The translations under genes and the position numbers were made by a program. Below are positions 1,406-62,369 of a stretch of DNA of 64,000 nt, piece after piece (the stretch's first letter is position 1; the number at the start of each line of letters is the position of its first letter). The DNA is from a virus. The notes under the pieces were generated by a model. It was given only the letters and a program-made list of their open reading frames with translations, did not search any database and was not told the DNA's origin. Location: the UHGV virus genome UHGV-0120889; one strand, 5' to 3'.

Positions 1406-3742
1406 TTACCAAAGATCTGTTGACATAAAGTTAATATCTTTGTTATTCTCCCACTCAAGTTTTGCATCAAGTATTTTGCTAAACTCACCCTCATCTATTG
1501 AAATCGTGATTTTCCCATCACTAATCTCTAAAGGTAGCATTTCCATAGTTCTTAATTGAGAAGCAAAACCAGGGCCACCTGGCAACGGAAAAGTACCGCC
1601 CGGTAAGGTGTCCAAAGGATTAACAAATCCGTTACCTCCCGATATGATATCTTTGCGAATCATATCGCTGATAGTATCCAGCTGCTGATTTCTTTCACTT
1701 AGTGGGTTGTAACGGTCATTAAATAATTCCCCGGCGCTTAGTATTGTACCGATAATACCCAGCTTACCGAGCAGACCAACTTTGCCACCAGGTGTCTTGA
1801 GGCCACCTCCCCCTTTTCCTGCCGGAGCGCCACCACCAGATCCTTCTGTAGTAGCGGCACCTGCTACTCCAGCTGCACCCCTTAAAGATCTAAGGTATTT
1901 AAAGGTTTTTACAAGCATAGATACCATGACAAAACCTTTTGTTAGGGCGTTGACGACCAGCATGATGGCAGCAGCAAACCCTGCCCATTTAGCATAGCTA
2001 AAGGTGTCATGAAGCTCTTCAGAATATTCCTTCGTCTTAGCTGTTATGAACCCCCATTTAATCCCCCATTCAAGGAAAAACATGCGGATCTTGACTATAG
2101 TGTTGTTCAGTTCACCAACTACCCAGTTAAGGCCTCTCACAAACCCGCTAACAAAATCACCAGAGGCATCCCACACAAATTGCAGAGTCTCACCAGTGCG
2201 GATTAGTGTATAATAGAACTCTGTTAGTTCGTCAGACCAACGGGTGAACAGTTTCTGACGAGTCAGTTCGATAAAGGTTTTCAGTCTGTTTTCTGCCAGC
2301 ACGTTAGACTTCTGCATTCTTTCATAACCAGCTGCAGATGCCTCGTTCATGTACTTAGCCACATACTTCATGATCTTGGCTGTTTTAACCTCACCTTTCT
2401 TCATCATGTCCATGAACTGATCCATGGAAAGTTCAGAAAGACCAAAAGCCTCTTTGGTGGCCTTGATAAAAGGTTCGTATGCACCAGGCAATGCTTCAGC
2501 AAGTTGTTGCTTCAGTTCTTCGGACATTACCTGTCCTTTCCCGAGCATCTGTTGGATTGCCATAATACCGCGCTGGTATTTTACCTCATCGGCACCATAA
2601 GCAGCAGCATACTGGGAGTATGCAGAAAACAGCTCATGCACTTCCTGATTTGTCATCTGGTTTTTGGCGTTTACCGACATCTGGGCGTAACCTTGAAGAC
2701 CAGATTTGAGATCAAAACCAAGACGCATAGCCTCTTGCTGGACAAACGCAACCTCACTGTTGGCTTTGTTTGGATCTCCAGTGACAGCAGTAAGAGCAGC
2801 ACTTGCCCCCTCCATCATGTGACCGGATCTGTTAACCGCAGCAAATCCAGAAAAAGCTGTATACGCAGCTGTTGCATTAATAACAGATCTACGTAAGTCT
2901 CTCATGGCATCGCCTAGTGTAAGCGTTTGGCTGGTGGCGCTTTTAAACCCAGACTGCAGCGCTGACAGGTGGGCGTTAAAGGTTGACTTCTTCATCTCCC
3001 CGCGAGCAAACCTGGACTCTAACTCTGAGTATCCTGGCAAGCTTCCACGGAATCCGGCCCCATACTTGGCAGAAAGTCTTATCGCGGAGTTGTAGAGGTG
3101 GGTTCTCCTTGCCTCACGATCCGACATAAGCCTATTATCCATACCAGCTTTACTGTCTCTTCTTAGCTGTCTATGATAACGATTCATAGCGGCTGTCTGA
3201 GCTTTCACAAGGTTAGGGTCGGAAGCCACACCACCCATATTAGGGTTACCTGGGATATATTTGAAAGATTTGGCATTAGCCAAAACTCTTGCCTTAGGTG
3301 CCTTATAACCACCGTAAGACACTGGTGCAGATTTGGCAGCCTTTTTGGCCTCTTTAGCTTGCTGCTGGTAGAACTTACGCATCCTAGCCATTTCTGGATT
3401 TTTAGCGGTAAGATTACCTACAGCTTGTTTACGTCTCGCATTCTCCCTACGTTCTATTGCAGCCCTTACTGCAGCCTCTTTCTTGGCCTGTGCTACGCTC
3501 TCTCTGTGCAGTTTAGCATTTGCCTGAGATTGCTGTCTGGCAACCCTCTGCATTGTCTGCTGGGTTTTAACAGCTACCGCCTGCCATCTACTCATGGGGT
3601 TGGCTGAGTTAAAATCCTCGCCCAGTTTCCTGAACTCCCTCCCAATACTGCGAATTTTCTCTACAGCTTTTTTGTAGGAGGAGTTCTCTATCTCAAAGCC
3701 AATCTTGTTGACTGTTGTGGCAACTATTTTGTTTGTAGCCAT
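1406..3742 (-). CDS. tail tape measure protein (778 aa)
   Basis: Longest ORF of the tail module; Ala/Gln/Lys-rich helical N-terminal half, Gly-rich block (GSGGGAPAGKGGGGLKTPGG); preceded by chaperone-like ORF pair. Confidence 0.85.
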   Translation of the reverse strand: MATNKIVATTVNKIGFEIENSSYKKAVEKIRSIGREFRKLGEDFNSANPMSRWQAVAVKTQQTMQRVARQQSQANAKLHRESVAQAKKEAAVRAAIERRENARRKQAVGNLTAKNPEMARMRKFYQQQAKEAKKAAKSAPVSYGGYKAPKARVLANAKSFKYIPGNPNMGGVASDPNLVKAQTAAMNRYHRQLRRDSKAGMDNRLMSDREARRTHLYNSAIRLSAKYGAGFRGSLPGYSELESRFARGEMKKSTFNAHLSALQSGFKSATSQTLTLGDAMRDLRRSVINATAAYTAFSGFAAVNRSGHMMEGASAALTAVTGDPNKANSEVAFVQQEAMRLGFDLKSGLQGYAQMSVNAKNQMTNQEVHELFSAYSQYAAAYGADEVKYQRGIMAIQQMLGKGQVMSEELKQQLAEALPGAYEPFIKATKEAFGLSELSMDQFMDMMKKGEVKTAKIMKYVAKYMNEASAAGYERMQKSNVLAENRLKTFIELTRQKLFTRWSDELTEFYYTLIRTGETLQFVWDASGDFVSGFVRGLNWVVGELNNTIVKIRMFFLEWGIKWGFITAKTKEYSEELHDTFSYAKWAGFAAAIMLVVNALTKGFVMVSMLVKTFKYLRSLRGAAGVAGAATTEGSGGGAPAGKGGGGLKTPGGKVGLLGKLGIIGTILSAGELFNDRYNPLSERNQQLDTISDMIRKDIISGGNGFVNPLDTLPGGTFPLPGGPGFASQLRTMEMLPLEISDGKITISIDEGEFSKILDAKLEWENNKDINFMSTDLW

Positions 3743-15397: not shown

Positions 15398-15746
15398 CAG
15401 ATAGTCTATCTGCTCCCATTCGAATTGTGTCGTTTATGTTCGGGCAAGGTCGCTAGTCTTGCCCCGCCATTTTCAGGCAGCTGCATGTCTCCATGCAGAC
15501 CAGACTATATCTTATAAGCGACAACAACCGCTTATCCTCCCGTTTCGAATCGCTTGATTCTACGTCTTTCGACTAGTCGTTGAACGTTCATCCTCTCGGA
15601 TGCTTCGCTGCGGATTATCTAAATTAACACACTGTTACCATACCTTCGATCTCTCTTCGAAGCCTCTATCATGTTACCATGACAGGTTGGTGGTATTAAT
15701 AGTAAAGATTTCCCCGCAATTAGGGAGGTTTTACGAGAGCTACAAA
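15398..15746 (-). other. ORF-less intervening sequence inside terminase large subunit gene (putative self-splicing intron)
   Basis: No ORF in any frame; multiple perfect hairpins (CTGCATG/CATGCAG, CTTCGA/TCGAAG, GGGCAAG/CTTGCCC); separates Walker-A/B ATPase part from C-terminal part. Confidence 0.5.
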
Positions 15747-16175
15747 TTAACCCTCATCGAAGCAAACCATGGTGTACTCAAGCCCTTGATGGTTAAGCTT
15801 ATCTTGTACATACTCCATGTGGCAGTATTTTACAACAGCTCCCTTTTTGCTTCTATCCCACTTGCCAGTGTTCGGATCAAACCGTGGAAAAATGAACTTA
15901 TGATCCTTCTCTCTGAACTTTGGCTTAATGTTTTCAGGCAGATCACTATAAATAGCTACCGCTTTAGGCCATAGTCCACCCTCACCTTCCAACTGCGGGG
16001 TTGTTCTTCGGAACATAACCACAGAGCTGTGGGGGTCATCAATAATTTTAAGTGGCATCAATTGCAAGAGGAACGACTTGCCAGACCCTGCGGCACCGCC
16101 GATTACCAAAATATCTGCATCGTTTTCGAGGATCATCTTCTGCTTTTCAGAACACGGTCCGTAAATCTTAGACAT
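15747..16175 (-). CDS. terminase large subunit, N-terminal ATPase segment (exon 1; 3' boundary approximate)
   Basis: Walker A VIGGAAGSGKSF and Walker B-like VCFDE motifs characteristic of large terminase ATPase domain. Confidence 0.8.
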   Translation of the reverse strand: MSKIYGPCSEKQKMILENDADILVIGGAAGSGKSFLLQLMPLKIIDDPHSSVVMFRRTTPQLEGEGGLWPKAVAIYSDLPENIKPKFREKDHKFIFPRFDPNTGKWDRSKKGAVVKYCHMEYVQDKLNHQGLEYTMVCFDEG

Positions 16176-17278: not shown

Positions 17279-17355
17279 TGGTCTCCACGGAGTGATTCGA
17301 ACACTCGACCTCCTGATCCCAAATCAGGCGCTCTACCAAGCTGAGCTACGCGGAG
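17279..17355 (-). tRNA. tRNA-Pro (anticodon UGG)
   Basis: Manual cloverleaf: acceptor CTCCGCG/CGTGGAG, D-arm GCTC..GAGC, anticodon loop UUUGGGA, T-loop TTCGAAT, encoded CCA. Confidence 0.85.
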
Positions 17356-17366
17356 TATTTATTATT

Positions 17367-17441
17367 TGGTGGCCCTGGGTGGAATTGAACCACCGTCTGG
17401 CGATTATGAGTCGCTTGCTTGAACCTTCCAGCTACAGGGCC
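17367..17441 (-). tRNA. tRNA-Met (anticodon CAU; could be Ile-lysidine type)
   Basis: Acceptor GGCCCTG/CAGGGCC, anticodon loop CUCAUAA, T-loop TTCAATT, encoded CCA. Confidence 0.8.
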
Positions 17442-17442
17442 A

Positions 17443-17518
17443 TGGTGCTGATGGCAGGACTTGAACCTGCAACCTATTGATTACAAATCAATTGCACTAC
17501 CAATTGTGCTACATCAGC
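17443..17518 (-). tRNA. tRNA-Thr (anticodon UGU)
   Basis: Acceptor GCTGATG/CATCAGC, D-arm GCAC..GTGC, anticodon stem ATTGA/TCAAT loop UUUGUAA, T-loop TTCAAGT, CCA. Confidence 0.85.
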
Positions 17519-17524
17519 AAAAAA

Positions 17525-17623
17525 GGTGCTAGGTGATGGAATCGAACCACCTATGTATTCAACGACTACCTCGTCTATTTTCAGGATTAAAAATCCTCGC
17601 CCTTGCCAAAGGGCTTACCTAGC
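17525..17623 (-). tRNA. atypical tRNA-like gene (possible anticodon UUU; ~30-nt extra arm)
   Basis: Acceptor GCTAGGT/ACCTAGC, D-arm GCCC..GGGC, T-arm GGTGG-TTCGATT-CCATC present, but 99 nt long with oversized variable region and no encoded terminal A. Confidence 0.3.
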
Positions 17624-17721
17624 TCAGTATGTTGACCATGTTGCTAGTCGGCGATGACGACTGTAACATTTGATAATCCGGTTCTGCTTCCGGCTTTCGC
17701 TTAATTACAAGGTCAACAATA

Positions 17722-17812
17722 TGGCTGAGGGTAATGGAATCGAACCATCATCGAGTCATCCTCAACGGGACGGTTTTCAAGACCGCTTGAGCACCATTGC
17801 TCCCTACCCTCA
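17722..17812 (-). tRNA. tRNA-Ser (anticodon UGA), type II
   Basis: Anticodon arm GCGGT-CUUGAAA-ACCGT, long variable arm, T-loop TTCGATT, acceptor TGAGGGT/ACCCTCA, CCA. Confidence 0.75.
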
Positions 17813-17926
17813 TTTATAAACAATACTGATAATGACACTGATTTTCGAGCAGTTAGTGACTAGTATAAACGACGATAAATATCAATGCCATTATCTGTAT
17901 GATTTATGCATTTAAAACTATAAATT

Positions 17927-18013
17927 TGGTGGGGAGTGGTGGAGTCGAACCACCCGAGTCGTAATGACAATAGATTTACAGTCTACACCGCTACCTCTAC
18001 GGGATAACTCCCC
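17927..18013 (-). tRNA. tRNA-Tyr (anticodon GUA), type II
   Basis: Anticodon loop CUGUAAA and variable arm TGTCATTACGACTCG closely resemble bacterial tRNA-Tyr; acceptor GGGGAGT/ACTCCCC, CCA. Confidence 0.85.
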
Positions 18014-18017
18014 AATT

Positions 18018-18092
18018 TGGCACCCCGTACTGGACTCGAACCAGTGTCAACGGCTTAGAAGGCCGCTGCTTTATCCACTAAGCTAACAGGGC
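18018..18092 (-). tRNA. tRNA-Arg (anticodon UCU)
   Basis: D-arm GCTT..AAGC, anticodon arm GCGGC-CUUCUAA-GCCGT, T-arm ACTGG-TTCGAGT-CCAGT, CCA. Confidence 0.8.
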
Positions 18093-34715: not shown

Positions 34716-35302
34716 TCGGAATTGATGTAGATCTGACACTGGTAGATTCAGGAACAGCATGGTGGGAGTGGTTGGAGCGTTTGTATGGTCCAGCCAGTAA
34801 GACAGTAGCTAAACCTTCTAATGGGCTAATGTATTACGATCTGTCAAAGTATTGGCCTGATCGTCCCAAAGAAAACATCATAGGACCTTTTGATTTCTGG
34901 AGTGATCCGTTCCTCTACGACTTCCTTAAGCCTGAAGAGGGGGCTATTGAGGTTATGAAAGATTTGGTGGCTCGTGGTCACAAGCTTGCATTTATCTCGG
35001 TATGCAAGAAAGGTCACCTTGCATCTAAATCAAGGTTCTTAAAGCGTTGGACCAGTGATTTTATGGATCTGGACGATCACACCCAGGGCCACGGCTTCTA
35101 CGCCACACATTTCAAAGGGAATGTGGCTGTAGATGTTATAATTGACGACAGGCATGAATACCTGAACCAATTCGCTTCACGACCTGAAGTTATTAAAATC
35201 CTAAAAGATACGCCTTATGAGCAATTCGAGGAGTTAAAGGTCAGTGTTGACTATACCGCTAATAGCTGGTATAAAATAGGAAAATTTTTAGAAGGTATTT
35301 GA
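34709..35302 (+). CDS. HAD-superfamily phosphatase (5'-nucleotidase-like)
   Basis: HAD motif I IDVDLTLVD (DxDxT), motif IV-like VDVIIDD. Confidence 0.5.
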   Translation: MLIGIDVDLTLVDSGTAWWEWLERLYGPASKTVAKPSNGLMYYDLSKYWPDRPKENIIGPFDFWSDPFLYDFLKPEEGAIEVMKDLVARGHKLAFISVCKKGHLASKSRFLKRWTSDFMDLDDHTQGHGFYATHFKGNVAVDVIIDDRHEYLNQFASRPEVIKILKDTPYEQFEELKVSVDYTANSWYKIGKFLEGI

Positions 35303-39638: not shown

Positions 39639-40727
39639 ATGGCTGTATTTAATGCTGAGAACACCGCTCATAAAACTGGTGACTATCCGCTGTTTCTGGG
39701 ACAGCAAATGGGTATGTACGACTCTATCAACAAAAAATATCCACAACTGTTTGAACTATACAAAAAACAAAAAGAGCAAGATTGGGCAGAGGATGAAGTG
39801 GATTTGTCGCAATCTATTTCAGATTTTGTAACATGCTCAAAATCAACTTATGACGTGATGGTGCAGACCTTGATGTGGCAATGGGAGGCTGATAGCGTTG
39901 CGGCAAGATCGATCATCTGCCTCTTTTCACCATTCATCACTAATAGTGAGCTTTTCACTCTATTGATGAAACAGTCAGAGATTGAAGTTCTTCACGCACT
40001 AACTTACTCAGAGATTGTTAGACAATGCCTCCCCAATGCCCGTGAGATTATAGAAGAGATTCAGGAAAACCAAAACGTTCTGAGCAGATCCGGCGTTATT
40101 GTCAAATACATGCAAGAGCTTGAGGTTATTGGTGCAAAATACCGCCTGGATCCTTCTAGTGTTGAAGAAGATATTGTGCGGAAATGCATTCTTAGAGCGC
40201 TTTTTGCGCTTTTAGCTCTGGAAAGTATTGAGTTTATTGCAAGTTTTGCATGCACTTTCGCAGTAGCTGAACAGGGTATCTTTGTTCAGGTGGCGCAGCT
40301 TGTTCAAAAAATCATGCTTGACGAAATGCTACATTCGAAAGGTGATTTTGCCATCATTGATATCTTGCTTAATGATCCCGCATGGGAGAAAAGCTTCCTT
40401 GAGATAAAGGGGGAGTTAAAAGAGATTCTTGATGAAGTACGAACCAAAGAGTACGGTTGGAGTGACTATATTTTCAGCGAAGGAAGAGCGATTATAGGTC
40501 TTAACTCACCGTTGCTTAAAGAGTGGGTTGACTATAACTGCTCACCGATTTATGATTACTACGACATCGACAAAGACTTTGTGCCGCCAACAAAGGACCC
40601 GCTACCGTTTATGCAGGTGTGGATGAAACCTTCATTACAACAGACGGCGAACCAAGAAATGTCGAACACTGACTACCGCGTCAACACAACTGTTAACGAC
40701 GCTGAAGAAGAAATTTGGGAGTTTTAA
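39639..40727 (+). CDS. nrdB: ribonucleoside-diphosphate reductase small subunit (NrdB)
   Basis: ATG 39639 with AGAGG RBS; 363 aa helical protein adjacent to nrdA; di-iron ligand-like E/H motifs (MLDEMLHSKGD). Confidence 0.7.
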   Translation: MAVFNAENTAHKTGDYPLFLGQQMGMYDSINKKYPQLFELYKKQKEQDWAEDEVDLSQSISDFVTCSKSTYDVMVQTLMWQWEADSVAARSIICLFSPFITNSELFTLLMKQSEIEVLHALTYSEIVRQCLPNAREIIEEIQENQNVLSRSGVIVKYMQELEVIGAKYRLDPSSVEEDIVRKCILRALFALLALESIEFIASFACTFAVAEQGIFVQVAQLVQKIMLDEMLHSKGDFAIIDILLNDPAWEKSFLEIKGELKEILDEVRTKEYGWSDYIFSEGRAIIGLNSPLLKEWVDYNCSPIYDYYDIDKDFVPPTKDPLPFMQVWMKPSLQQTANQEMSNTDYRVNTTVNDAEEEIWEF

Positions 40728-57587: not shown

Positions 57588-57893
57588 ATGGCTAAATCTA
57601 AAGTTGAACTGTTCACCTCTCTTCCTTCTGACACTGCAGAACGTGATCGCCTTCGCAAAACAATTGAAGAACTGGTGGAACTCCAGCTTCAGATTAAAGA
57701 TTTGAAAGATGCCATCAAGGATATCATTCTTGTTGAGAAGCAGGATCATCTGTATTCTCCTAAATTCATCAAATCTTTGGTGGCTACAGAGTTTGATATC
57801 CGCTACGAAGCTGAAAAACGTCGCGCTAAGATTGAAGAAGAGGTTGAGCACATGTCTGAGGCAGACATTCTGTTCAAACGCTCTGTAGAATAA
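57588..57893 (+). CDS. hypothetical coiled-coil protein
   Basis: AAGGAGA RBS; helical charged sequence. Confidence 0.45.
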   Translation: MAKSKVELFTSLPSDTAERDRLRKTIEELVELQLQIKDLKDAIKDIILVEKQDHLYSPKFIKSLVATEFDIRYEAEKRRAKIEEEVEHMSEADILFKRSVE

Positions 57894-58266: not shown

Positions 58267-58574
58267 GGTGGATTATGTCTACAAAGGCGGCTAAATACTC
58301 CTATATGCCATCAACCTCTGCAGAGGTAGACTTTAGTTTCGATGTGTTTCCACTGTTTGAGGTGGTTCTGGCATACCCAACAATACTATCTACTCCTGAA
58401 TCACTTGTGCCTGTTAAGTTGCAGAACGCTATGCATTCCATGCACTACAACAACAAATGTAGGCACAGATGGTGTCAGGACGAGGAAAAAGATTTGGATA
58501 GTTTGAGAGATTTTGACAGTCACCTTTTGACACCTTTCAGCTACTCCAACCTTGATAAGCCCTCGTGGGTATAG
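58263..58574 (+). CDS. hypothetical protein
   Basis: ORF track. Confidence 0.4.
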   Translation: MRWIMSTKAAKYSYMPSTSAEVDFSFDVFPLFEVVLAYPTILSTPESLVPVKLQNAMHSMHYNNKCRHRWCQDEEKDLDSLRDFDSHLLTPFSYSNLDKPSWV

Positions 58575-58598
58575 CAAAATATCAAATTTAAGACACCT

Positions 58599-58627
58599 AG
58601 GACGCTCTGTGGCGTCCTTTTCTTTAT
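58599..58627 (+). terminator. rho-independent terminator ending the plus-strand gene block
   Basis: AGGACGC-TCTGTG-GCGTCCT hairpin followed by TTTCTTTATC. Confidence 0.65.
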
Positions 58628-58787
58628 CTGGTGCACGATTGCATACCTTGGGTAGTTAATCTCATTACAGAGCGTTTAAGAGCTCCCTACAAACAACTCC
58701 ATATTTCGAGCGTAGCGAGAACGCACGTCCGTTTTGACCCAAATCACCATACGCTCGGATTTTAACCAAACCCTCGCGGCGTTTCTG

Positions 58788-58816
58788 TTGACACATTGCC
58801 GATCCAGTGATAGTAT
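58788..58816 (+). promoter_or_regulatory. sigma70-type promoter
   Basis: TTGACA (58788) - 17 bp - TAGTAT (58811). Confidence 0.5.
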
Positions 58817-58848
58817 CCACACATAGTTTGTAGAATATGGAGTACACA

Positions 58849-58938
58849 ATGAGAACATTGTCCGAAGTTTTAGTGGTGATCCTGATGATCATTACGTCCA
58901 TAGTGGCTGTTGCCGGAATACTCACGGGTGGAACATGA
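58849..58938 (+). CDS. micro-ORF encoding hydrophobic peptide (29 aa)
   Basis: MRTLSEVLVVILMIITSIVAVAGILTGGT; stop overlaps next ATG (ATGA). Confidence 0.35.
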   Translation: MRTLSEVLVVILMIITSIVAVAGILTGGT

Positions 58939-59147
58939 TAAACACACATGCATCTGAAGAGACATCCAAAGGAGTGACTATATGTCCCTTGACTGAGCCA
59001 GTGAAAGAGGAAAACTTCGATTCTGAAGATTCTCCATCTTCGCTCCAGGTAGATCCTGAGGTTGATGACCTAACGTGGGAGGACATCGTAGATATCTGGT
59101 TCTCTATTATGCCTGAGCACGAAGAGTTCAGGGGCGGCAGACTATGA
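58935..59147 (+). CDS. hypothetical acidic protein (70 aa)
   Basis: ORF track. Confidence 0.4.
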   Translation: MINTHASEETSKGVTICPLTEPVKEENFDSEDSPSSLQVDPEVDDLTWEDIVDIWFSIMPEHEEFRGGRL

Positions 59148-59186
59148 AGCACCGAGCCCACACAGGTTCCTCATGCTAAAGCATGG

Positions 59187-60376
59187 CCTGAAGAGGCAAA
59201 CGTGCATAATTCCAGCGTATTGGAACGCATAAAACCCTGTTCACACTCTCATTTTCCAGAGGAGATTTCATGAAGATAGAAATATTTGGTGGAGCTGACA
59301 ACACTCGTGGCCTGATTTACCTTGAATTCGAGGAATCATACCTGCCAGAGGTGTTAAATATAGACTCTGTTGCTGAGGCTTTGGGAGTAAACCCTAAAGA
59401 ACTCCACTCTTGTGCTGAGATCGATGGTTGGGAAGAGACCATGAACATTGATTTCAGTGAAGTAGAGGATGAACCGCTGGACTGACACACAATTAGCTGC
59501 CCGGCTAAAGTGCTGGAAGCACCTATAACACATCTTTCAACTAAATTTCCTACCACCACAATCACTTACCTCCCACACATGACTGTTTGCTTGTTTAGTG
59601 AGCAGTCATGCCTTGACATTCTTGCCTATCTTGATAAAATTAAGTTCTTCTCTTTTCTTTTACCGAGTAATTCGGGTTTTCTGTTCTCTTCGGTTTGAAG
59701 GGGTATGGAGATACACCTGAGTGAACAGGGTGAACAACCGAACCTTTGGCTATGGCATTAGCATGGCGAAGCGGACGGGTGACGAAAGAGGGGCCGGAGG
59801 ACACCAGTCACTGCCATATGATATATGGGTGATAACCTGAAGAGTCTGAATAAGTGTTTAAGTACCAGTCAGAGGAAAAGGTGAATGGTAGCCGAAGGGG
59901 GAGGGGGGTTTCTTGTATCTTTAATTTGTATATTATGTATACACTTGTAAACCAACACCATCTGAATTTGTTTACCACAGAAAGCGGATAGAGACAAATA
60001 TTACCTATTAAACTTGAATTATTTATAGAAAATACCACAACACCACTTAAGTATTTGATTTTACACATAAATCCTACAGATATTCACCCTCCATATTTAA
60101 CATACTTGTAACATATTCCATACTCTACCTGTCTGATCAATTTCCCCAACTACACCCACCATATTTTCCCTGTCTGTACCACCCCTGACCCGCCGGGAGT
60201 CCCGTCATATCTGGCTTTCCAGCAAATATCACACCCACAAATATCATTGCCTGAAGAGGGTTTCATCCCATAATACATGCCTTACCTGAAGAGCGCTTCA
60301 TACACCACGTAAATTTTTTAATTGACCCCCTCCCCGCCGCCGGAGAGGTTGTCTTTTCCCACACAGACCTGAAGAG
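59187..60376. repeat. five dispersed copies of 9-mer CCTGAAGAG in an ORF-poor region
   Basis: Exact copies at 59187, 59836, 60250, 60285, 60368 (all same orientation). Confidence 0.8.
59270..59485 (+). CDS. small acidic protein (MKIEIFGG N-terminus)
   Basis: GGAG RBS; N-terminus like family members. Confidence 0.4.
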   Translation: MKIEIFGGADNTRGLIYLEFEESYLPEVLNIDSVAEALGVNPKELHSCAEIDGWEETMNIDFSEVEDEPLD

Positions 60377-60903
60377 TCAGTCAGAAATATCTGAATGGAC
60401 CCAATTCTGCCCTGTCATGAGCGGTAGCGACTGGAGTGCTGCCAGGCGGACGAAATGGGAATACTTCTCATTCTTATAATAATTCTCAAATATCGAGGCA
60501 GTGAGGAAAATTAATAGGTGAGGCCGTTCACACAGTGGCACAACATTTGCAACCTATCTTGTGGGGGTGAATGAGAATACCTATCATTGTGAGAATAGTT
60601 ATCATTACGGGCAATTTAACATAATACCCATTATGCGCACCACTGGCGATCCATACAGGGATTGATAACATGAGTTACAGTTTACGCATATAACAATCAT
60701 ATTTCTTACTATTTGTGTGGGATATAGTTAGCAGCCGATAGATTAGATATTGACCTGTGGACTTCCAACCATCTAGACGTCTAAACGCCCACACAACAAG
60801 GATTATACATACATTACTGAATGTAAACAGGGCCGCAAAAATGCTACCATACCAGTTTGTAAATTTTTCATGCAGCACTTGACAAAGAGGAGGAAAACTT
60901 GTC

Positions 60904-61028
60904 TGACATAATGTGACCTAACTGACACAACATGACACTTTTACACACCTATTAGTTTACACACTGGATTGTTTACATTCCTGATTGTTCACATGCTAAC
61001 CATTTACATGATTGACTGTTTACACACC
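60904..61028. repeat. iteron-like arrays: TGACA x4 then TTTACA(C/T) x6 at ~16-bp spacing
   Basis: TGACA at 60904-60937; (T)GTTTACA-type units starting 60940, 60955, 60972, 60988, 61003, 61019. Confidence 0.7.
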
Positions 61029-61036
61029 GATAATCA

Positions 61037-61287
61037 GCCATGCCATTCGTTTGCATGACAATAATTATACATGACAATAATCGCACTGATTATAATTAGC
61101 ATGACATAATATAAAAGCAGGGCAACTATTAGCAGATCTATAGTTGCCTTGCTTGTCATGTCATGATTAACTAAATACAAGGCAACTATGATCTGATTAA
61201 TAGTTTGCAGACAAACTATCACGGGGGTGATGGTTACTGCTTTTATATTATGTCGCGACTCCGTCGCGCCATGCCATTCGTTTGCAT
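61037..61287. repeat. 251-bp element bounded by perfect 20-bp direct repeats with nested inverted repeats
   Basis: GCCATGCCATTCGTTTGCAT at 61037..61056 and 61268..61287; inner 15-bp inverted repeat 61106..61120 / 61237..61251; palindromes GGCAACTAT-N10-ATAGTTGCC (61121..61148) and 61181..61208. Confidence 0.8.
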
Positions 61288-61949
61288 AGTTGCCTTATTG
61301 TTACAGGTAAAATAATTGTATTGTTAATTATTTCTTATCTTTCTATTAGTCATCTAATGATTCCAGTTAGTATAGTAACGTACAGTAAACATTAGACGAC
61401 TAAAGATTTCTCTGCTTATGATAACCTAACGTGACAATTTCAGACTGTTTACGAAAAATGTTGACACCTGAGCTGATTTATGTTATGCAGTTTACACGAA
61501 TAATTATTTTATGCAGGTATTGACTATTCCGTTATTCTATGGTTGGAATAAATACTTAGCAGACTATAGAATGGTGAGCGTACGTAAATTCTGAGATCTG
61601 TCGGCTATAGTTATACTCGATTTTTCACGTAGAACACGCTTTTTGGTTTGTGTAAGTGTATGACTTATAAAGATTTTTAGTTGTTGACAAGATATTGGAG
61701 ATGTGCATCAGATTAAATTTTGTGCAATAGCTACATTACGTGCACTTTTGGAAGAAAAAACGTGTAAAAATGGCCCTGCTACCACACAATGAAAGATTAT
61801 GCAATAGTTATTTTATATGTATATTTGTACAGTGTGTGGGATTAATGGCTAGTCAATTATTCCACTTGCCAGGTAGGGCCGTTTATGGTAGGAGAAGAGC
61901 AGACAAAAAGAAAGGGGCCTTTAAGCCCCTTGATAATTCAATTAAGAAA

Positions 61950-62369
61950 TTATAATGATTCGTATATTTCAAAAATCCGATTTGCCAGGTCGTTACGGTA
62001 GCGGAATTTTTCATCACGCTTGATCATTAAATCCTTATAGCCGTACTCTTTAAGCACTTCATTAACTTTATGGCGGCATACCTGCATATTATCTTGAGCG
62101 TCACCAATAAATCTGTTGCTATGGTGCATGGCTTTAATTTCTTCTTCCAGGACCAGGGCAACTATGCGGACCGGATCAAGCTGATAGGCGGTAACATCCA
62201 TGCGGCATTGTAAACGGCTTTTTACGTCTGCCACCGGATATACTGCAACCTCTTCCCCGTCAACATTGACAATAATTAGTTTACCATCGATTTCGAATCC
62301 TTTCGCCGCCGGACCGTGACAAAAAGCGTTATCAAAGCTATATGCCGGATTATTAGATTTAATGTTCAT
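61950..62369 (-). CDS. hypothetical protein (139 aa)
   Basis: ORF track. Confidence 0.45.
   Translation of the reverse strand: MNIKSNNPAYSFDNAFCHGPAAKGFEIDGKLIIVNVDGEEVAVYPVADVKSRLQCRMDVTAYQLDPVRIVALVLEEEIKAMHHSNRFIGDAQDNMQVCRHKVNEVLKEYGYKDLMIKRDEKFRYRNDLANRIFEIYESL

Follow-up and report, generated by a model that had tools for sequence, protein, structure and literature searches.

What does a short motif do when it is repeated five times, always in the same orientation, in and beside a stretch of viral DNA that carries no genes? This question is raised by a 64,000-nt piece of the virus genome UHGV-0120889 (the window), in which five exact copies of the 9-mer CCTGAAGAG, designated A to E, were located at 59187, 59836, 60250, 60285, and 60368, all on the + strand. 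The window was assigned to Vequintavirus, a genus of rV5-like myoviruses, and the 3.4 kb around the motif cluster was matched at 93–96% identity by over 100 Escherichia phages belonging to it. As judged from sequence comparison, the CCTGAAGAG copies, with the core hexamer CTGAAG, could plausibly be cis-acting packaging or concatemer-junction DNA elements, the likeliest of the explanations considered, although the assignment stops short of being probable. The coordinates of the features are collected in Table 1.

The count of CCTGAAGAG was above the base-composition expectation in both the window and the whole rV5 genome. The window contained 8 copies, compared with 0.61 ± 0.72 expected and a maximum of 3 in dinucleotide shuffles, and the complete rV5 genome contained 8 copies on the + strand and 1 on the − strand, with 0.4–1.0 expected per strand. 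Four copies were present in the non-coding box of rV5, against 0.006–0.014 expected, and no other 9-mer of the 138-kb rV5 genome reached 4 copies within 1.3 kb. The three copies of the window outside the cluster, on the + strand at 34931, 35798, and 43228, had been missed in the preliminary description, in which the motif was not noticed elsewhere. All three were inside open reading frames (ORFs) and were read as the in-frame codons CCT-GAA-GAG (Pro-Glu-Glu); because of this reading they need no further explanation and are coding coincidences. When 12 relatives were compared, 56 of the 60 copy-by-genome cells were intact at homologous positions, and no CCTGAAGAG was found on the minus strand of the homologous loci. 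The divergence in these relatives was 0.7% at the motif positions and 4.0% in the 12-nt flanks, and for copy E the values were 0% and 5.9%, respectively. These figures show that the cluster is genuine, that it did not arise at random, and that selection acts on it.

The successive copies A to E were separated by 649, 414, 35, and 83 bp. Copies A and C shared 14 of 15 nt and the string CAT.GCCTGAAGAGG, copies B and E had CCTGAAGAGTC...TGAAT in common, and copies C and D were part of a common 20-nt repeat with 85% identity (17/20). The element CCCA(C/T)A, previously described 10–14 bp upstream of three copies, was confirmed at copies C and D with gaps of 10 and 12 nt, respectively, whereas the gap was 4 nt at copy E and 24 nt at copy A, and the element was missing at copy B. 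Copy A was found in the context CATGGCCTGAAGAGG-N8-CATAAT, and one relative (L005) had a 46-bp hairpin-rich insertion immediately 3′ of this copy.

The genes left of 59485 were on the + strand and those right of 61950 on the − strand; therefore, two transcription units converge at the gene-free gap between them (59486–61949). This gap was 2.46 kb long rather than the 2.2 kb of ORF-poor DNA first assigned to the cluster, and it contained copies B–E, with copy A lying outside. In the rV5 paper, the same stretch separates genes 163 and 164 and is drawn in grey as a "non-coding" box, in which the authors expected bidirectional terminators, did not find them, and noted a change of GC skew. The box has been left without an assigned function since 2013, and a first functional reading is proposed here.

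The cluster was situated in front of the physical genome ends of close relatives. Terminal redundancies of 458 bp were reported in the phages EdH4 and HdK5 (Korf et al. 2019). In the EdH4 record, the first 458 bp were identical to the last 458 bp, the first base corresponding to position 60445 of the window and the last to 60903. In the Gotham record, a repeat_region was annotated at 1–459 and the repeat was held twice. The bov10K2 and bov22_2 records began exactly at the left boundary of this repeat, and the Pr121LW and EcoIv14a_Aya records began, reversed, exactly at the right boundary, so that both boundaries were agreed on by records from several groups. Vequintavirus probably has a 459-bp direct terminal repeat at fixed ends.

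When the comparison was extended to the subfamily, DNA similarity to the region ended at the genus border. A protein anchor, the gene labelled 'transcriptional regulator' at 57588–57893, was rejected; the gene was located elsewhere in other genera, and the loci retrieved with it (L015–L019) were of no use. Seven genera were instead aligned on the dif-like site described below, which lies within the terminal repeat. The left boundary fell within a cross-genus block, ...CTG(C/T)(C/T)A|G(A/G)CGGAC (the bar marks the boundary), which read TAGACGGAC in four genera; this TAGACGGAC box was aligned with the repeat boundary of Vequintavirus. The right boundary fell in a second cross-genus box, CTTGACA-N17-19-TGT(C/T)|T.A.CA.

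The core hexamer of the motif recurred on the left of this boundary box. The consensus at the boundary box of the other genera was tCTGA(A/G/T)G.G.TAGACGGAC, in which the hexamer abutting the box was an exact CTGAAG in Avunavirus and a one-base variant in Seunavirus (CTGATG) and Mydovirus (CTGAGG). The left-boundary box of the window was homologous to the tCTGA(A/G/T)G.G.TA|GACGGAC of these genera, and a degenerate CTGGAG was found at 60431–60436, at the place where the other genera carry the boundary-adjoining hexamer. Exact CTGAAG copies on the + strand left of the boundary numbered 4 in Vequintavirus, 3 each in Seunavirus, Avunavirus, and Mydovirus, and 2 in Septuagintavirus, and the full repeats had the genus-specific forms CCTGAAGAG, ATCTCTGAAGG, or GTCTGAAGTG. 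When the non-coding DNA to the left of this site was pooled for the seven genera, CTGAAG was counted 15 times on the + strand and 2 times on the − strand; the + strand expectation was 1.0 ± 0.96, and none of 500 shuffles exceeded 4. The distance of an exact CCTGAAGAG from the dif-like site was −277 in phage 4MG and −308 in A5-4, compared with −246 for copy E. The Certrevirus CB7, which was reported to be circularly permuted on the basis of BAL-31 digestion, had neither + strand CTGAAG copies nor the GACGGAC box.

Table 1. Positions of the repeat copies, boundary boxes, and neighbouring elements in the window (the bar in a sequence marks a repeat boundary).
Feature	Position	Strand	Remarks
Copy A, CCTGAAGAG	59187..59195	+	Flanked by two small ORFs; boundary of the repeat about 1250 bp to the right; intact in 11/12 relatives
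Near-consensus sigma-70 promoter, TTGACA-N16-TGaTAAAAT	59613..59640	+	11/12 matches, extended −10; conserved in relatives
Ultra-conserved block, about 270 nt	59647..59920	+	Includes copy B; GGGGGAGGGGGG at its end, AT-rich DNA beyond (59920–60100)
Copy B	59836..59844	+	In the ultra-conserved block downstream of the strong promoter; about 600 bp from the boundary; invariant in 12/12 relatives
Copy C	60250..60258	+	Preceded by the CCCACAAATATCATTG element; start 195 bp left of the boundary; intact in 11/12 relatives
Copy D	60285..60293	+	35 bp after copy C (tandem 35-nt unit); start 160 bp left of the boundary; intact in 10/12 relatives
C-rich box CCCCCTCCCC with GC hairpin	60323..60352	+	Between copies D and E
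Copy E	60368..60376	+	End 69 bp and start 77 bp left of the terminal-repeat boundary
Degenerate copy and putative cut-site box, CTGGAGTGCTGCCA|GGCGGAC	60431..60451	+	Left repeat boundary at 60444|60445; from EdH4 and Gotham record ends and the multi-genus alignment
Direct terminal repeat, 459 bp; probable concatemer junction	60445..60903	.	Physical genome ends of close relatives
dif-like XerCD site, GGTGCGCATAA-TGGGTA-TTATGTTAAAT	60614..60641	−	Within the terminal repeat; 26/28 identical to E. coli dif
Right repeat-boundary box, CTTGACA-N19-TGTC|TGAC	60878..60907	+	Conserved; equivalent CTTGACA...TGTT|TAGCA in 4MG, KNP2, and pEa55

Three roles had been offered for the motif in the preliminary description, namely a phage-specific promoter, a regulator-binding element, and a part of packaging or replication signals. 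The last of these gained strong positional support, because the cluster is in unique DNA that runs into the 459-bp repeat and the core hexamer recurs at the boundary box, whereas the promoter was poorly supported. The clustering, the strand bias, the conservation, the position relative to the ends in database records and one paper, and the cross-genus core hexamer at the boundary box were all observed. From these, we infer that terminase may bind the motif and that packaging may require it. In a replicating concatemer, the unique right end would run through copies A to E into a single repeat (60445–60903). The same-orientation array would be read by the packaging machinery, most plausibly by the small subunit of terminase or by an accessory protein that binds DNA, and this reading would mark the junction and its polarity. 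The large terminase would then cut at the conserved boxes flanking the repeat, CTGCCA|GGCGGAC and TTGTC|TGACA. With the physical ends, the candidate packaging signals, and a host recombination site assigned to the box, genome records, which are now begun almost anywhere, could be started at a reasoned position, and the DNA to keep intact when such phages are rebooted or engineered or when transducing particles are built is defined. End recognition by a large virulent myovirus also becomes accessible to experiment. Phages of the rV5 type belong to the coliphages isolated most frequently, and they serve in therapy cocktails and phage engineering.

Several observations weigh against a packaging role. 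Copies A (1.25 kb) and B (0.6 kb) were farther from the boundary than known pac elements. Copy B was contained in an ultra-conserved block that is presumably transcribed, where the constraint may be unrelated to the motif. Copies B–E were all on one predicted transcript strand, and a role at the RNA level fits their orientation equally well. Single copies were mutated in 4 of the 12 relatives, and thus no copy is individually indispensable. In Henunavirus, the boundary box was present with no exact CTGAAG, and TCTGATC was found at its place. The boundaries used here were taken from the records of relatives, none from reads of the window phage. In addition, two papers described Vequintavirus genomes as circularly permuted or headful on the basis of PhageTerm, which conflicts with fixed ends.

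The organization of the junction resembled that of T7 (NC_001604). The terminal repeat of T7 is 160 bp long, and CCTAAAG heptamers are found within and next to it, 11 at the left end and 5 at the right, all on the + strand. A CCCCC-ATA-GGGGG hairpin is found among the heptamers, the terminus reads ...GTGTACGGAC, and the promoter phiOR, lying some 550 bp upstream of the right-hand repeat, is aimed at the junction. The T7 Pac site consists of PacB, recognized by the small terminase gp18, and PacC, where gp19 cuts; the array and the boxes of the window would play the corresponding roles. In both systems, the direct terminal repeat is short and exact, short repeats on one strand occupy the unique flanking DNA, a C-run/G-run hairpin lies among the repeats, and ACGGAC is present at or near the terminus; the heptamers CCTAAAG (T7) and CCTGAAG (window) are one base apart. 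An upstream promoter aimed at the junction, predicted in the window, would be a further likeness. However, the window had five exact copies only, spread over 1.2 kb on one side, with a TGACA/TTTACA array on the other. The predicted promoter was of the host sigma-70 type rather than of the phage-polymerase type, and the genome is that of a 137-kb myovirus with a dif site in its repeat. The likeness is one of organization, and homology of terminase or junction is not claimed. To our knowledge, the role of the T7 heptamer arrays is not firmly settled, which also counts against the packaging role proposed for the CCTGAAGAG array. Repeat arrays beside a terminal repeat are already known from T7, and the motif is not a new category. 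At the T7 junction (39760–39800) the sequence read ..TCTGAGTGACTA|TCTCACAGTGTACGGAC, and in Seunavirus and Mydovirus (L025 and L028, ~3270–3295) it read TCTGA(T/G)GTG.TAGACGGAC. The common TCTGAG(G)TG and ACGGAC may represent coincidence or related terminase recognition.

Repeats bound by small terminases are found elsewhere as the R sites of lambda cosB, the pacL and pacR boxes of SPP1, and the TGATCA/G hexamers of P1 pac. As in these sites, several short sequence-specific elements were clustered by the presumed terminase cut and would give it position and polarity. Unlike these sites, the copies in the window were irregularly spaced, two of them were far off, and the cut would duplicate the 459-bp repeat instead of producing cohesive ends or a headful series.

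Additional features were observed around the repeat. The two boundaries shared the 8-mer TG(C/T)C(A/T)G(G/A)C, which was TGCCA|GGC at the left and TGTC|TGAC at the right. Copies C, D, and E were part of a C-rich segment to the right of the AT-rich stretch. At the place equivalent to CCCCCTCCCC, a C-rich box with a small GC hairpin was found in Seunavirus, Mydovirus, and Henunavirus, and a C-rich box in Avunavirus. Four AAATATC 7-mers on the same strand surrounded the cluster (60224, 60239, 60385, and 60488), and the position of one box, TCTTTACAAAATATC, just inside the terminal repeat, was kept in all seven genera examined. Several relatives contained hairpin-rich insertions at fixed points, 18–69 bp long at 60327 and about 30–50 bp long at 60420, just before the repeat boundary. 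Right of the repeat (60904–61030), a different array was composed of about 12 TGACA/TTTACA units with 10–16-bp spacing. It was followed by two exact direct copies of the 20-nt sequence GCCATGCCATTCGTTTGCAT (61037 and 61268) and by a perfect 18-nt inverted repeat (61103–61120 and 61237–61254). The repeats at 60904–61300 could be left-end packaging or origin elements.

The main rival to a packaging signal is a role at the RNA level, which appears unlikely. A non-coding RNA transcribed from the promoter at 59613–59640 would carry CUGAAG(AG) as a motif for protein binding or processing; such an RNA might prime replication or form an R-loop, might be associated with packaging, or might be an sRNA-like RNA of about 75 nt starting at ~60281 with copy D at its 5′ terminus. 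The promoter was directed at the genome end, with copies B–E downstream on the transcribed strand, and all non-coding copies were co-oriented with it. The block behind it (59647–59920) had a divergence of 0–1.7%, compared with 5–28% in neighbouring genes and spacers, and its identity was 97.5–99.7% among the 33 full-length Vequintavirus records listed. A conserved promoter also preceded the CTGAAG copies in 4MG and KNP2, in which the first copy was placed in the loop of a hairpin, AUCUCC-UGAAGCG-GGAGGAU. A promoter-like TTGCCT-N16-CATAAT (60247–60274) and a hairpin with a U-run (60323–60356) would frame a small RNA. Nevertheless, no Rfam family was matched in 58500–62100 even at E ≤ 10, and the folding energies of both conserved blocks on both strands were not better than those of shuffles (z −1.3 to +0.7), the sequences being too conserved for covariation to be assessed. 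The five copies had no consistent structural context, copy A was upstream of the promoter, and the U-run after the C-rich hairpin was absent in the other genera. No transcriptome of an rV5-like phage was found in the searchable literature. The block itself was without a long ORF, and is a candidate for a non-coding RNA or a phiOR-like primer or origin element.

A promoter element was considered very unlikely. The 9-mer would be a box at about −30 for a phage activator in the style of the T4 MotA box, or it would overlap a −35 hexamer. In T4 middle promoters, the MotA box is located about 12 bp upstream of the −10 element of a sigma-70 promoter, and copies A and C similarly placed a 9-bp box 9–10 bp upstream of CATAAT; the one at copy C was listed in the promoter scan as TTGCCT-N16-CATAAT (60247–60274), and copy A was followed by the last gene of the + strand block (59270–59485). 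This pattern failed at copies B, D, and E, which had no −10-like hexamer at that distance, and no ORFs followed copies B–E. The putative −35 TTG at copy C was replaced by CAG in four relatives, and the 17 promoter-like matches in the region were not above the 12.7 ± 3.9 of shuffles. Furthermore, the motif was not found upstream of any other gene in complete rV5, the remaining copies being inside coding sequence, and there was no genome-wide class of such promoters. The copies might also be iterons for a replication initiator, or accessory sequences for XerCD recombination at the dif-like site, a distinctly improbable pair of roles that was nonetheless suggested by the convergence of two large transcription units at the GC-skew shift noted by the rV5 authors, by the AT-rich stretch after the G-run, by the other iteron-like arrays, and by a bona fide dif-like site 246 bp right of copy E. 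The 9-mers were shorter and far less regularly spaced than classical iterons (repeats of ~17–22 bp), and the GC-skew shift was confounded by the change of gene orientation. The motifs were on the XerD side of the dif-like core, whereas the accessory sequences of plasmid Xer sites are on the XerC side. The motif is not KOPS (GGGNAGGG), and no ArgR, ArcA, or PepA site was seen in it. Neutral relics of local duplications without a function of their own, the least probable of these explanations, would account for the sequences shared between A and C and between B and E, and for the position of copies C and D at the heads of a 35-nt tandem duplication. This explanation is disfavoured; the motifs were about 5-fold better conserved than their flanks, and the core hexamer was enriched on the same strand in genera whose flanks could no longer be aligned.

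Three further candidates for the motif were rejected. CTGAAG is the Eco57I/AcuI site, yet it was not avoided genome-wide (60 and 54 copies versus about 50 expected). CUGAAGA fits the CUGANGA core of a hammerhead ribozyme, but no hammerhead model of Rfam was matched at E ≤ 10 and no consistent stem II/GAAA was present; by eye, a stem with GAAA followed the motif only at copy B, with a G-G mismatch at the closing pair. A mimic of the tRNA-Phe anticodon loop or another common hairpin was also discarded; CC-UGAAGA-GG formed only in the copies ending in G, and no stem was shared.

The more surprising element of the locus is the host-type dif site in the terminal repeat, which a whole subfamily of virulent myoviruses has conserved. 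The E. coli dif sequence reads GGTGCGCATAA-TGTATA-TTATGTTAAAT; both arms of the phage site were identical to it, and two changes were found in the 6-bp centre. The layout matched that of a XerCD site, with an 11-bp XerC arm, a 6-bp centre, and an 11-bp XerD arm, as in E. coli dif and the plasmid sites cer and psi. E. coli chromosomes matched the 2.5-kb region only at this site, at one place per genome. The dif-like site was present in 12 of 12 Vequintavirus relatives and in 259 records of six further genera (Seunavirus, Avunavirus, Mydovirus, Certrevirus, Henunavirus, and Septuagintavirus), and in these six genera it was always within the same convergent ORF-poor region. The XerD arm was invariant across the genera, and the centre differed from that of the host in every genus. 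No mention of Xer or dif in Vequintavirinae was found in the searchable literature.

After injection, host XerCD would recombine the two dif copies in the terminal repeats, and the genome would be circularized or replicative multimers would be resolved; since the dif-like site is in terminally repeated DNA, recombination between two copies would be expected to circularize the injected genome. Integration at the chromosomal dif is argued against by the centre, which differed from that of the host in every genus; such a non-host centre would disfavour it. In P1, Cre/loxP can cyclize the injected genome, and loxP lies in the terminally repeated DNA of some P1 virions. The phage dif-like site is placed alike, and circularization via terminal sites would be likewise, except that a strictly virulent myovirus would leave the step to its host. 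Unlike the dif-type sites of plasmids, filamentous phages, microviruses, and Xer-exploiting elements such as CTXphi and TLCphi, the site in the window was carried by a virulent 137-kb myovirus, in which XerCD recombination is only predicted. If this link were true, virulent tailed phages would join plasmids, microviruses, and filamentous phages in exploiting XerCD/dif, and a dependence on host factors would be predicted. It is conceivable, but doubtful, that the repeats, the cut boxes, and the dif site form one end-processing module common to Vequintavirinae, which would combine T7-style cutting with circularization or multimer resolution by XerCD.

Other sequences were found near the dif-like site. 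In the Shigella phage CM1 (L009), a duplication of ~520 bp gave two dif-like sites. A tandem 17–18-nt repeat, TGAGAATA..TATCATT, was located at 60572–60606 and was annotated as a repeat_region in the phages naswa and magaca, and Fur-box-like palindromes, AATGATAATCATT or AATGAGAATCATT, were near the site in other genera (L025, L027, and L028). The tandem repeat and the palindromes are possible sites of accessory proteins. The G-run GGGGGAGGGGGG (59898–59909) and the C-run CCCCCTCCCC (60327–60337) were complementary, 430 nt apart, and both contained the FtsK-orienting GGGNAGGG. A box of the GGGNAGGG type was found about 180–500 bp left of the dif-like site in 6 of 7 genera, with the nearest one at −665 in Henunavirus; its strand varied.

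Other origins of the region were tried and rejected. A ColE1-like plasmid origin was not supported, plasmid homology being nil save for one rV5-like record filed as a plasmid, and host-derived DNA was likewise dismissed, the E. coli matches being limited to the dif-like site. A neighbouring gene is labelled 'DNA translocase FtsK' in some records; its 87-aa product had no FtsK-gamma or other significant Pfam match, and a link with FtsK was not retained. A 71-aa neighbouring protein matched 3 loci in IMG/VR. About 18 'Campylobacter phage' records (host C. jejuni) were 93–96% identical to rV5-like coliphages across the region, and look like mislabelled or contaminant assemblies. Elsewhere in the window, a group I intron was detected with 84 bits at 15481–15759 on the − strand; its host gene is probably that of the large terminase, annotated in rV5 as a join of three pieces together with an HNH gene. 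Seven tRNA genes were clustered at 17279–18092 on the − strand, including an odd tRNA of 99 nt for which ARAGORN gave a 4-base anticodon and Rfam a score of just 35.5 bits.

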